DNA of 64,000 nt from Methylobacter sp. GTDB lineage: Bacteria; Pseudomonadota; Gammaproteobacteria; Methylococcales; Methylomonadaceae. The DNA lies in NCBI GenBank assembly GCA_036741905.1, contig DAINRH010000001.1, positions 34,617 to 98,616 on the forward strand, in the 5' to 3' direction. A program made the translations under genes and the position numbers. The notes under the pieces are model-generated. The model worked only from the letters and a program-made list of their open reading frames with translations. It was not told the origin of the DNA and did no database searches. This document shows positions 42,027 to 50,677 of this stretch, piece by piece (position 1 is the stretch's first letter; each line of letters starts with the position of its first letter).

Positions 42027-43820
42027 ATGAATACGGCAAAACTAAAAAAATTCGCCCAGTTTGCCCGACGCTGCCTGATTGATCAGATTTCAAGCAAACT
42101 GGAACTGGTACTGGCTGAGGACAGCGCGGCGCGGCGTGAGAGCATGAAAGCTGTCAAAAAGCTTGAAGAACAGATCAGCGAGCATGGCGAAGAACAGGTG
42201 ATCGAAAAGATCGCCTACATCTGGTTCAATCGTTTCTGCGCCTTGCGCTTCATGGATGTAAACAACTATACCCGCATTGGCTTGGTATCGCCCGCCGAAG
42301 GGCAGTTCCAGCCGGAAATTCTGGCTGAAGCCAAGATGGGGCATATCGACGAGGACATGGTGCCTGAAAAAATCCGGCAGCAGATTTTTGCCCTGCTCGG
42401 CGGCACTACGCCCAGCCGCGATCCACAGTCCGAAGCCTACCGCTTATTGGTGGTCGCTTCCTGCAACGATTACCACAAAGCCATGCCTTACCTATTTGAG
42501 CGCATTGCCGACTACACCGAACTTTTAATGCCCGATGACCTGCTTTCGGGTAGTTCCATCCTGGCCTACACCCGCGAAGCCATGACACCGGACATTTGCC
42601 AGGATGTCGAGGTAATCGGTTGGCTTTACCAGTTCTACATCTCTGAAAAGAAGGATGCCGTTTTCGACGGACTAAAGAAAAACAAAAAAATATCCCCGGA
42701 AAATATCCCTGCCGCCACTCAGCTTTTTACCCCACATTGGATTGTGCGCTATTTGGTGGAAAATTGTTTAGGTCGCCTGTGGATGCTCAACCGTCCCAAC
42801 TCGCGGTTGGTTGAAAAGATGGAATATTACATTCAAGCCGAGCAGGTCGAGACTGACTTTTTGCGCATCAACAAGCCTGAAGAGTTGAAACTCTGTGATC
42901 CCGCCTGCGGTTCCGGGCACATGCTGGTATACGCCTTCGATCTGCTTTATGTTATCTATGAAGAAGAAGGCGTTGATCCTGCCGAGATTCCAGAAAAGAT
43001 CCTGACCCATAACCTCTACGGCATCGAAATCGATGAGCGTGCTGGCGAACTGGCTGCGTTTGCCCTGACCATGAAGGCAAGAGCTAAACAGCGTCGTTTC
43101 TTTCGCAAGCCGGTACAACCTAATATCTGTGTGCTGGAGAACATCCATTTCGACGAAGCGGAAATCAACGAGTACATGGATTTCGTTGGGCAGGATATTT
43201 TTACGCTGGGATTGAAAGCCACCCTGAGCCAGTTTGAAGAGGCCGACAACTTTGGCTCTTTAATTCGCCCTGAAATGACCGACGTGGAAGGAACGCTATA
43301 TATTCTTGAAGCAAAGGATGCCGCCGGACATCTGTTTCTAAGCCTGACCCATCAGAAGGTGCTGCAAGCGTTAAGACAAGCCGACTATCTCAGTCCGAAA
43401 TATCATGTGGTGATTGCCAATCCGCCTTATATGAGTGGCAAAGGCATGAATGGCAGATTGGGGGCATGGGCCAAAGATAATTATCCCAATAGTAAATCGG
43501 ATCTTTTTGCCATGTTCATCGAGCGCAATCTGGAACTCTCAGTTAAACAAGGCGCTGTTGGCATGATTACCATGCAGAGTTGGATGTTTCTGTCTTCATA
43601 CGAGAAACTGCGTGATAGCATCCTCGATAAATATACAATTCTTTCCATGGCACATTTAGGCGCACGAGCCTTTGATAGTATTGGCGGCGAAGTGGTTTCG
43701 ACAACGGCTTTCGTTTTGGAAAATGCCCATCATCCTGAATACAAAGGAGCTTATGTTCGTTTGGTTGATGGCAATTCCGAAGCTGAGAAACAAGCCGCTT
43801 TCAAAGCGGCACTTGGATAA
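42027..43820 (+). CDS. pglX: BREX methyltransferase PglX, N-terminal half (methyltransferase domain) as a separate ORF
   Basis: MNTAKLKKFAQFARRCLIDQ...IAYIWFNRFCALRFMDVN is the PglX N-terminus. NPPY lies at 43419-43430. AGGAGG precedes the ATG at 42027. The ORF stops after ...AYVRLVDGNSEAEKQAAFKAALG. Confidence 0.85.
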   Translation: MNTAKLKKFAQFARRCLIDQISSKLELVLAEDSAARRESMKAVKKLEEQISEHGEEQVIEKIAYIWFNRFCALRFMDVNNYTRIGLVSPAEGQFQPEILAEAKMGHIDEDMVPEKIRQQIFALLGGTTPSRDPQSEAYRLLVVASCNDYHKAMPYLFERIADYTELLMPDDLLSGSSILAYTREAMTPDICQDVEVIGWLYQFYISEKKDAVFDGLKKNKKISPENIPAATQLFTPHWIVRYLVENCLGRLWMLNRPNSRLVEKMEYYIQAEQVETDFLRINKPEELKLCDPACGSGHMLVYAFDLLYVIYEEEGVDPAEIPEKILTHNLYGIEIDERAGELAAFALTMKARAKQRRFFRKPVQPNICVLENIHFDEAEINEYMDFVGQDIFTLGLKATLSQFEEADNFGSLIRPEMTDVEGTLYILEAKDAAGHLFLSLTHQKVLQALRQADYLSPKYHVVIANPPYMSGKGMNGRLGAWAKDNYPNSKSDLFAMFIERNLELSVKQGAVGMITMQSWMFLSSYEKLRDSILDKYTILSMAHLGARAFDSIGGEVVSTTAFVLENAHHPEYKGAYVRLVDGNSEAEKQAAFKAALG

Positions 43821-43823
43821 ACC

Positions 43824-48885: not shown

Positions 48886-50677
48886 TGAGGCCACTAAAAC
48901 AGTCAAAAATACAGAACGCAATTTTTTCCGTGTGTCTGCCGCTGATTTCAAGAAAATTCCTGGCAATCCGATTGCATATTGGTTGCCCCAAAGTGGATTG
49001 ATTGCTTTTTCTTACCCAGAATTAAATAAAATGGGACAAACCCGCCGAGGATTGCAAACTGGCAATAAAGACCGATACATCAGAAATTGGTTTGAGGTTT
49101 GTTCTGCCAATATCGAATGGGCAGCAACGCATAAGCATGAAGCTGCCAAGAGTTCTGCAAAGTGGTTTAAGTTCAACAATGGTGGCGATTTTCGTAAGTG
49201 GTATGGCAATCTTTTTTTAGTTGTTAACTGGGCTAATGATGGAAAAAACATCAAAGACTCTGGCGGGGCAATTATCCCAAGTGAATCACTTTATTTTGAT
49301 TCTGCGGCTTGTTGGGCAAGGCTTTCTTCAGGAAATAATGCCTTTCGCGTACATCCCATCGGGGTAATTCCTGGTGATTTGTCGCCATGCTATTATTCTG
49401 ATCATGATGAGTATGCTATTGCGTTTCTAAATAGCTCTAGTGCCAATTATTTTCTCAATGTTATAAACCCAACCATAACCAAGACAGTTGGTGATATCGG
49501 CAAGATACCATCCTTAAGTCCAGACAGAATAGAAGGTGCCATCAAGAGTAATTCAACCAAGTTAATAGAGTCCCATAAAGCTGACTGGATATCTGATGAA
49601 CTTTCTTGGGATTTTGTTTGCCTACCATTACTCAAGCCTGGCTATGGTCAGCCGGCAGGTTGGGTTAGCGATAACGTAACACGACAACTCGAAGCCGCCT
49701 CCTACCCATTGCCCTTATCTATCAAGGAAACCTACACCCAACTCCGTACTCATTGGCAAGAAATGACGTTGGAAATGCAGCGTTTGGAACAAGAAAACAA
49801 CCGCATCTTTATCAATGCCTACGGCTTACAAGATGAACTGACACCGGAAGTGCCGCTGAAGGAAATCACCCTGACCTGCAACCCGCACTACCGCTATGGC
49901 AACAACAAGAACGAGGAAGAGTTGGAAACGTTGCTGCTTGCCGACACCATGAAAGAGTTTGTCTCCTACGCGGTCGGCTGCATGTTTGGCCGTTACGCGT
50001 TGGAAAAACCGGGGTTGATCCTCGCCAACCAGGGCGAAACCATCGAAGACTACCTAAAACAGATTCCCGAACCAAGTTTCTTGGCGGATGACGACAATGT
50101 CATTCCCATGCTTGATGGCGACTGGTTTACCGATGACATCACCGAACGCTTTTGCAAATTCTTGAAAGTGACTTTTGGTGACGATCATTACGAAGCAAAT
50201 CTCACATCCATTGAGAAGGCGCTGGGCAAAGACATCCGCAAATATTTACTGAAAGATTTCTACAATGACCATGTGCGCCGTTACAAAAAACGCCCCATTT
50301 ACTGGTTATTCAGTAGCCCTAAAGGCACATTCAACGCACTGATCTATATGCATCGCTACCGCCCGGATACCGTCAGCGTGGTGCTTAACGACTATCTTCG
50401 CGAGTTCCGCACCAAGCTGAGCGCCCATAAAAACCATCTGGAAGCGGTGAGTATCAGTAGCAGCGCCTCGGCAGGCGAAAAGACCAAAGCGCTGAAGGAT
50501 ATCGAAAGCCACAGGAAAATGATCGACGAACTGGACAGCTACGAACGCGAAGTAATGTACCCGCTCGCCACCGAGCAGAAAGAAATCAACCTGGATGACG
50601 GCGTGAAGGTGAATTACCAGAAATTCGGCGAGGCGCTGAAAAAAATACCTGGCTTGGCTGCGAAGGATGAGGAATAA
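48878..50677 (+). CDS. pglX: PglX, C-terminal half as a separate ORF
   Basis: [24 protein letters not shown] and the following roughly 580 aa continue PglX exactly where the N-half stops. The ATG at 48878 overlaps the HerA stop by 8 nt. Confidence 0.8.
   Translation: [599 protein letters not shown]

Follow-up and report, generated by a model that had tools for sequence, protein, structure and literature searches.

PglX is the methyltransferase and specificity factor of the bacteriophage exclusion (BREX) systems, and how its lobes cooperate, and with which partners, is still an open question. Here, we analysed a 64,000-nt stretch of a Methylobacter sp. genome (GCA_036741905.1, contig DAINRH010000001.1), hereafter the window, in which the pglX gene of a BREX operon is present in two pieces. 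Coordinates given without a locus handle are window positions. A complete type 1 BREX operon was identified by Pfam and PADLOC at 35663-56869 on the + strand, where it forms one compact array of co-oriented genes (Table 1). All six core genes (brxA, brxB, brxC, pglX, pglZ and brxL) were found at full length on this strand, with pglX divided into two open reading frames (ORFs). The single ~1200-aa PglX polypeptide of type 1 BREX was absent; the domain content was nonetheless complete. The two genes, pglX-N (597 aa) and pglX-C (599 aa), add up to 1196 aa and are separated by 5.06 kb, and no second pglX copy was found within the window. An earlier sequence-only reading of this DNA had described a clean split of pglX into two ~600-aa ORFs by a three-gene cassette, and the coordinates, the gap and the overlaps were exactly as it had noted.

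The pglX-N gene encodes the N-terminal helical domain and the gamma-class N6-adenine methyltransferase domain, which form the 'upper jaw' of PglX. The expected methyltransferase motifs were present, with the S-adenosylmethionine motif DPACGSG at residue 291 and NPPY at residue 465, and the protein ends in ..SEAEKQAAFKAALG before its stop codon. It matched the half-length PglX model PDLC02525 of PADLOC over positions 1-591 of 607 (E 2e-281). The pglX-C gene encodes a 13-aa leader, a hinge segment, the target-recognition domain (TRD), the spacer helices and the C-terminal domain (CTD), that is, the 'lower jaw', and matched the half-length model PDLC02516 over positions 15-592 of 593 (E 1e-186). 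In a phmmer comparison with PDB chains, residues 45-589 of the N-half aligned to residues 67-633 of Salmonella PglX (8c45_A, E 4e-127), and residues 21-600 of the C-half, taken in its 606-aa frame, aligned to residues 639-1217 of the same chain (E 5e-94), a range that includes the TRD, the spacer helices and the CTD. The halves meet at Salmonella residues ~634-638, and the alignment of both halves revealed no missing internal segment of PglX. Fused relatives read '..SEAEKDAAICEAVKKTNCGWLYRASADDFKKIPGSPIAYW' or '..RLVDGNSEAEKDAAICEAVKKTNCGWLYRASADDFKKIPGSPIAYW' across the junction. Compared with these, a linker of ~5-6 aa ('NPNCGW'-type) was alone replaced, by the tail of the N-half and the 13-aa leader of the C-half. 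The earlier statement that the halves abut with nothing lost was thereby borne out, save for these linker residues.

The position of the break can be understood from the published structures. In E. coli BrxX, 'flexible hinge loops' at residues 638-675 join the upper jaw, composed of the N-terminal domain (NTD, residues 1-210) together with the methyltransferase domain (MTD, 211-650), to the lower jaw, composed of the TRD (651-837) and the CTD (838-1205) (PMC11842806). The hinge of Salmonella PglX was placed at residues 654-659 (PMC11341690), and the break lies ~15-20 residues N-terminal of it. As the end points of the alignments fall beside these hinge positions, pglX is cut at the start of the hinge that joins the upper jaw (NTD and MTD) to the lower jaw (TRD and CTD). 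A suspected duplication at the junction (NSEAEKQA versus SNEATKTV) was dropped as a coincidence because it was not general across loci.

The three genes between the halves are tightly joined to each other and to pglX. A gap of 3 nt separates pglX-N from the AlbA_2-domain gene, the AlbA_2-domain gene and SIR2 as well as SIR2 and herA are each joined by an ATGA overlap, and herA overlaps pglX-C by 8 nt (GATGAGTAATGAGG), so that the herA stop codon falls inside the pglX-C start (ATGAGTAA). The last ~45 nt of herA contain the pglX-C Shine-Dalgarno sequence GAAGGG, located 7 nt upstream of the pglX-C start. The SIR2 and HerA (DUF87) genes are adjacent, as in known SIR2-HerA systems, with near full-length matches to the PADLOC models, and the AlbA_2-domain protein may be a regulator or sensor. 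Within the AlbA_2-domain gene, a 12-nt tandem repeat (GAGTCACGGCTA, about 4 copies) was observed at 45024-45070, which may be either a variable linker or a tract prone to slippage. Transposon ends around the cassette, named by the sequence-only reading as a sign of recent disruption, were looked for: neither terminal inverted repeats nor a target-site duplication were found flanking the cassette, and Pfam detected no recombinase, transposase or integrase domain in the three inserted genes. The cassette thus lacks the features of a mobile-element insertion. No close relative of the region turned up when plasmid and E. coli collections were searched for similar DNA. A promoter and terminator scan gave no more sites than in shuffled sequence and was uninformative on internal transcription units.

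The identical C-half protein sequence was recorded on 33 contigs, and the gene order of the window was repeated in an independent assembly (L086); an assembly artefact is excluded on these grounds. Three further junctions of the operon were also occupied, namely brxC/pglX-N by HEC-02A and HEC-02B, pglX-C/pglZ by the YhcG protein (PDC-S02) and pglZ/brxL by the PDDEXK_3 protein. PADLOC identified both genes of the HEC-02 pair, and a HEC-02 pair between brxC and pglX was also very common among relatives with a fused pglX.

Table 1. Genes of the BREX operon and its surroundings in the window.
Feature	Position	Strand	Evidence and remarks
brxA	35663-36274	+	Pfam BrxA, E 7e-55
brxB	36265-36885	+	Pfam BrxB, E 4e-43
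brxC	36897-40439	+	Pfam BREX_BrxC_4th, helical and winged helix-turn-helix domains
HEC-02A, ABC-type ATPase	40436-41500	+	PADLOC HEC-02A, E 1e-118; Pfam AAA_21/AAA_15; ATGA overlap with brxC
HEC-02B, NERD-like nuclease, partner of HEC-02A	41497-42021	+	PADLOC HEC-02B, E 2e-69
pglX-N, 597 aa	42027-43820	+	Pfam Eco57I, N6_Mtase, MmeI_Mtase; PADLOC PDLC02525
AlbA_2 (Schlafen-type), HATPase_c_4 and winged-helix (Fic-like_C) gene	43824-45311	+	Pfam
SIR2 (SIR2_2)	45308-46726	+	PADLOC SIR2 PDLC04079, E 2e-165
HerA/DUF87 ATPase	46723-48885	+	PADLOC HerA PDLC04098, E 1e-269
pglX-C, 599 aa	48878-50677	+	PADLOC PDLC02516; phmmer against 8c45_A
YhcG/DUF1016 PD-(D/E)XK protein	50667-51842	+	PADLOC candidate PDC-S02; between pglX-C and pglZ
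pglZ	51842-54343	+	Pfam PglZ, E 6e-67
PDDEXK_3 small nuclease-fold protein	54371-54748	+	Pfam, E 4e-41; between pglZ and brxL
brxL	54803-56869	+	Pfam BrxL_N, BrxL_ATPase, MIT_C
AAA_13 ATPase	56862-59429	+	PADLOC candidate PDC-S06
SbcD-like phosphoesterase	59426-60655	+	
SbcC-like ORF	from 60668	+	continues past the window end
Weak Rep3-like ORF	32393-33526	+	
Group II intron reverse transcriptase/maturase/HNH gene	28509-30254	-	
YqaJ recombinase	26515-27558	-	
AAA_5/CbbQ	23798-24769	-	pairs with CobT/VWA
DUF3150	21654-22958	-	
CobT/VWA	19460-21364	-	
Toprim primase	11203-12285	-	
2372-aa ORF with Big_9 domain	3334-10452	-	

Recurrence of the split and contents of the gap

Genomes were searched for pglX-N and pglX-C as separate ORFs and the content of the gap was catalogued, a check also named in the sequence-only reading. 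The best 120 database relatives of the C-half were nearly all 560-650 aa long, covered the full query and had no methyltransferase domain. Those of the N-half (best 120, 75-90% identity) were nearly all 597-620 aa long and are named PglX by NCBI. The nearest named relatives of both halves belong to metagenome-assembled genomes (MAGs) of Methyloprofundus, by which the host would probably be placed in the gammaproteobacterial order Methylococcales. We then scanned the 80 species-representative genomes (GTDB) and the 80 metagenome contigs with the closest C-half relatives, and classed each locus, hereafter given by its handle (L001 and so on), as fused or split by tblastn and reading-frame continuity. 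Among 79 classifiable species representatives, 17 were split at the same break, 11 with an insert between the halves and 6 with a stand-alone C-half, while 62 were fused. The six stand-alone C-halves lie at the beginning of a contig, immediately preceded by a stop codon. The metagenome contigs gave 23 split and 53 fused loci (76 classifiable). The split was therefore found in about one fifth to one third of the closest related BREX loci.

The break was located at identical residue positions in every split locus. Carriers include Pseudomonas aeruginosa, Zoogloea oleivorans, Massilia pinisoli, Rugamonas fusca, Halopseudomonas oceani and Vreelandella indica, as well as Stutzerimonas stutzeri CCUG 29243, for which the chromosome is complete (CP003677.1). 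In P. aeruginosa and on this chromosome, the gene order was brxC, pglX-N, HEC-02A, HEC-02B, SIR2, HerA, pglX-C, pglZ and brxL, with the same 8-nt herA/pglX-C overlap as in the window. Two loci carried another arrangement, with two full-length tandem pglX genes in one BREX locus (L011, Pacificibacter maritimus, 2478-11704; L074, an Aliishimia MAG, 4680-11713); in L011, HEC-02 lies between the two copies. In L159 (10001-11575), the C-half match begins at query residue 56 and the gap measures 6.7 kb, which may reflect an N-terminally truncated C-half or a further insertion.

Other interrupted genes are known to be restored by excision or by split inteins, and a full-length PglX might likewise be regained by programmed excision, protein trans-splicing or recoding. 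We found no evidence in support of this. The gap holds no recombinase and is flanked by no direct or inverted repeats that we could find, Pfam detected no intein or Hint domain in either half, the N-half ends in a clean stop, the C-half starts at an ATG with a Shine-Dalgarno sequence of its own, and in most split loci the two halves do not share a reading frame. Restoration is effectively refuted.

The contents of the gap varied widely (Table 2). In each cassette-bearing gap examined, one or more known or candidate defence genes were present. The sole split locus without an insert was L154, in which a GC-rich spacer of 259 nt (9741-10001) runs from the N-half stop to the C-half start. In loci other than the window, the AlbA_2-domain gene was the most frequent single occupant (e.g. 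L008, L034, L088, L096, L098, L117, L121 and L140). As the gaps hold many unrelated defence cassettes, the slot is not specific to SIR2-HerA.

Table 2. Genes between pglX-N and pglX-C in the split loci.
Gap content	Loci
AlbA_2 + SIR2-HerA	window, L086
HEC-02 + SIR2-HerA	L001, L003, L058, L131, L171
SIR2-HerA alone	L013, L149, L091
Shedu + SIR2-HerA	L110, L114, L116, L159
HEC-02 alone	L030, L038, L048, L049
AlbA_2 alone	L096, L098, L099, L121, L140
AlbA_2 + YhcG	L008, L088
AlbA_2 + SoFic	L034
AlbA_2 + DRT UG5-nitrilase	L117
DRT UG5-nitrilase alone	L019, L157
Shedu + DRT	L068
Helicase-DUF2290	L031
AlbA_2 + KilA-N candidate	L045
ABC-ATPase + small partner (partner unmatched)	L123, L130

Relatives of the cassette were also identified away from the split. 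HerA relatives at 69% identity, accompanied by SIR2, adjoin an SNF2 helicase in integrative and conjugative elements (ICEs) of P. aeruginosa and Burkholderia multivorans, and 230 plasmid records contain SIR2-HerA relatives, most of them ~53% identical. From these sequence relationships, the SIR2-HerA family appears to be autonomous outside BREX. The closest relative of the cassette in the genome scan (69-79% identity) lies after a fused pglX in a Methylomicrobium MAG (L027). This locus (7309-17360) is a mosaic of the fused pglX, a 43-aa scar of a pglX 3' end, a YhcG fragment, AlbA_2-SIR2-HerA and then a 'GTGGGTAAC...' scar, which stands directly after herA and resembles the pglX-C leader. Judging from this arrangement, cassettes seem to travel along with parts of the junction.

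The SIR2-HerA pair could nonetheless be more than a lodger. In a functionally integrated hybrid, SIR2-HerA (with the AlbA_2 protein) would be a true BREX component or effector that acts on the split PglX by physical contact or through regulation, and the amount of specificity subunit would depend on the embedded system through the translational coupling of pglX-C to herA. Such a hybrid would agree with SIR2-HerA being the commonest gap occupant (the window, L001, L003, L013, L058, L091, L110, L114, L116, L131, L149, L159 and L171) and with the conservation of the 8-nt overlap at ATGAGTAA across genera, and the herA 3' remnants that some loci retain without the rest of the pair, described below, fit SIR2-HerA as the founding insert. 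However, many split loci have no SIR2-HerA and carry HEC-02, AlbA_2, DRT, Helicase-DUF2290 or combinations of these, or the spacer only; the L027 relative accompanies a fused pglX; relatives at 53-69% identity stand alone in ICEs and plasmids; and the conserved herA tail is more simply explained as the ribosome-binding region of pglX-C. We therefore regard the hybrid as improbable. The specific coupling of BREX and SIR2-HerA that had been raised from the sequence was not supported, given the varied cassettes, the cassette-free locus and the relatives outside BREX.

Selection, inheritance and exchange of the recognition domain

Between split loci, pairwise Nei-Gojobori ratios of non-synonymous to synonymous divergence (dN/dS) were 0.05-0.13 in the N-half and 0.15-0.30 in the C-half, where the hypervariable recognition domain lies. 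The N-half ratio of the L001/L003 pair, 0.54, was read as the result of a mosaic N-tail, and between the window and several more distant loci the synonymous divergence was saturated, so that the ratio was not computable. Where both halves were in view (26 split loci), DPACGSG and NPPY were retained without exception, and the C-halves were uninterrupted throughout. Three apparent stops in the N-half of L117 were ascribed to an extrapolated start and are putatively an artefact. The flanking BREX genes were intact, and the architecture spans lineages between which amino-acid identity is only ~60% in the C-half or ~75% in the N-half. These results demonstrate that both halves are under purifying selection, at dN/dS values incompatible with pseudogenes.

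Disrupted pglX genes are known in BREX loci, and the cassette might have killed pglX here, leaving the halves as relics or repurposed, for example with the N-half as an orphan methylase devoid of BREX specificity. The behaviour of the isolated domains of Salmonella PglX would be in line with such a loss, as the NTD could be purified alone and the CTD alone was not expressible (PMC11341690). An inactivated BREX is very improbable in view of the full-length halves with their catalytic motifs in 26/26 loci, the low dN/dS values, the persistence of the architecture across distant lineages, the intact state of all other BREX genes and the exchange of the recognition-domain block, described below, which proceeds as in active systems. 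Rather than a broken gene, the split represents a conserved design in two pieces. The sequence-only reading had judged that the cassette is not a fresh disruptive insertion, and that judgement agrees with the occurrence of the split in many taxa, the intact motifs, the dN/dS ratios well under 1 and the conserved junction.

A neighbour-joining tree of the conserved N-half core required 10 changes of the split state, compared with 23 (minimum 19) for shuffled labels. The neighbour-joining tree of the C-half required 28 changes versus 54 at random and was too mixed to settle a single origin, probably due to recognition-domain exchange. In the N-half tree, five different gap contents were found within a single clade of 13 split loci, which indicates that the split was inherited and the cassettes were turned over later. 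This is supported by herA 3' scars just upstream of pglX-C in loci that have no SIR2-HerA: 268 nt at 85% in L031 (Helicase-DUF2290), 192 nt (E 3e-23) in L048 (HEC-02) and 30 nt in L008 and L088 (AlbA_2 and YhcG). The ATGAGTAA start context, with its 'MSN' leader, is widely common to split loci across genera. The survival of the herA tail would be explained by the pglX-C Shine-Dalgarno sequence that it carries.

The split also marks a boundary of sequence exchange. In pairs of loci (L110 versus L116, L008 versus L088 and L098 versus L121), the operons were 93-98% identical in DNA but contained a divergent block of ~0.9-1 kb, which starts at or just before the pglX-C start and is followed by a return to ~90% identity. 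The synonymous divergence was several-fold higher in the C-half than in the N-half in three of these pairs. L110 and L116 also differ in a herA patch (about 8400-9300), and their pglX-C-to-pglZ segment was replaced. From the sequence comparison, the divergent block is best described as an allelic exchange of the recognition-domain block, with a 5' boundary that coincides with the split. The idea of an exchangeable specificity half thus gained support at the sequence level, as a block swapped from the pglX-C start in related split loci.

Favoured interpretation and surroundings of the operon

Taken together, we consider it likely that PglX works here as two subunits and that the gap between their genes serves as a slot for independent defence modules. 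The whole array would be transcribed as one operon, and pglX-C would be translated from the Shine-Dalgarno sequence and start buried in the herA 3' end. PglX-N and PglX-C would then assemble non-covalently, on DNA and/or in the BREX complex, into a methyltransferase, by analogy with HsdM and HsdS. SIR2-HerA would work on its own, as an abortive-infection module that depletes NAD+ and serves as a backup to BREX. More broadly, the nested modules may be independent second lines of defence, with HEC-02 upstream, AlbA_2 and SIR2-HerA in the gap, and YhcG and PDDEXK_3 downstream. The split would have been inherited and the cassettes later swapped, added or lost, at a slot that appears to lie at the 5' boundary of the hypervariable recognition-domain block.

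Several observations weigh against this interpretation. With regard to inheritance, the split state is not cleanly monophyletic, as seen from the 10 changes in the N-half tree and the 28 in the C-half tree, and three N-tail subtypes were each found both fused and split; the split may have arisen independently several times, or fused and split alleles may have recombined. No herA remnant was found for most AlbA_2-only, DRT or HEC-02 loci, and the sequences indicate 'SIR2-HerA first' for a subset of loci only. With regard to assembly, the association of PglX-N with PglX-C is read from sequence only, for every split locus. Apo PglX/BrxX was reported to be open, with the jaws joined by a flexible linker (PMC11341690, PMC11842806). 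As the jaws of this open form are linker-joined and the Salmonella CTD is not expressible alone, what holds the separate halves together is the main uncertainty. When modelled alone by AlphaFold2, the C-half reached moderate confidence (mean predicted local distance difference test 62.9, predicted template modelling score 0.39), with a confident recognition domain; residues 1-34 scored below 50 except for residues 20-26. The low confidence of this segment would fit, weakly, an N-terminal tether that needs a partner.

A stronger version of the two-subunit reading is a selected modular BREX, with an exchangeable recognition subunit and a cassette slot that is translationally chained to the specificity subunit. 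SIR2-HerA would perhaps be the founding insert, and its 3' end would have been kept as the ribosome-binding region of pglX-C. We hold this version to be a lesser possibility; if true, the expression of the BREX recognition subunit and that of the nested abortive-infection module would be mechanistically linked.

Independently of the split, the operon is followed by an AAA_13 ATPase, an SbcD-like phosphoesterase and an SbcC-like ORF (Table 1). At least the AAA_13 and SbcD pair was also found after brxL in P. aeruginosa (L001, with the SbcC-like gene called as well) and in L010, L017, L022, L024, L055 and L060, and in sequence terms the set looks like a recurrent module appended to BREX. On the other side, mobile-element-type genes adjoin the BREX island (3334-30254, - strand).

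Comparison with known systems

The canonical type 1 PglX/BrxX proteins of Salmonella D23580 (8c45/8q56) and E. coli HS (9ewz) have the same operon partners as the window and the same domain content and order, namely N-terminal helical domain, gamma-class NPPY methyltransferase, hinge, TRD, spacer helices and CTD. However, they are single chains of ~1205-1225 aa, whereas in the window two genes are cut at the hinge start and lie 5.06 kb apart. Annotation tools that expect a ~1200-aa PglX may call split loci disrupted or incomplete. PADLOC-DB already holds half-length PglX hidden Markov models that match the halves end to end, and NCBI names both halves PglX; given these models, the halves have been seen by database builders.

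Defence genes nested inside other defence loci are exemplified by PARIS in Salmonella BREX, BrxU in pEFER and PrrC in type Ic hsd loci. The embedding of defence genes between the genes of BREX, type I restriction-modification, DISARM and Hma loci was described by Payne et al. (2024, 10.1101/2024.01.29.577857), who demonstrated defence against phage by the HEC-02 pair and proposed an independent second-line role for embedded systems in general. As in the window, the embedded cassettes are co-oriented inside a defence operon, and HEC-02, PDC-S02 and PDC-S06 are all present here. The embedding they described is intergenic, whereas the slot in the window lies inside a normally single coding sequence, and their article mentions neither pglX nor its split. 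The concept of 'defences embedded in defences' is thus extended from intergenic sites to the interior of a coding sequence, and the pglX-N ... pglX-C arrangement provides a precise, searchable landmark for further defence cassettes. The SIR2-HerA anti-phage system likewise consists of an adjacent SIR2_2 and HerA/DUF87 pair; in the window, this pair is nested in pglX and preceded by the AlbA_2-domain gene.

The sequence-only reading knew of no described split PglX. A split at another site is known: in the BREX-1 locus of Brevibacterium casei, PglX is encoded by two coding sequences, and Milman et al. (2023, PMC9881135) took this naturally split form to be functional and connected it with specificity variation. 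In B. casei, the split follows the variable region (N-terminus and middle, then C-terminus), serves programmed inversions by a recombinase and has no cassette between the parts. Full-text searches of the readable literature found no description of the hinge split or of cassettes nested in it, and within that literature the claim would stand for these two features.

A close parallel is found in enzymes with separate catalytic and specificity subunits, which also include type IIB enzymes such as BcgI. In type I restriction-modification, the catalytic subunit HsdM and the TRD-bearing specificity subunit HsdS are separate proteins, and the C-terminal part of PglX resembles type I specificity subunits in structure (PMC11341690). 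The earlier suggestion of two HsdM/HsdS-like subunits fits the published structures in that the break falls at the hinge start and the C-terminal part is HsdS-like, and its basis is this structural analogy. PglX-C differs from HsdS in carrying a large BREX-specific CTD, and PglX differs from HsdM/HsdS in that positions 5-6 of its site are recognised in the methyltransferase domain (PMC11842806). A widespread natural PglX with its lobes as two proteins offers a ready system for studying the assembly of the methyltransferase, the swapping of subunits to re-target BREX, and the contacts of each lobe with BrxB, BrxC and PglZ.

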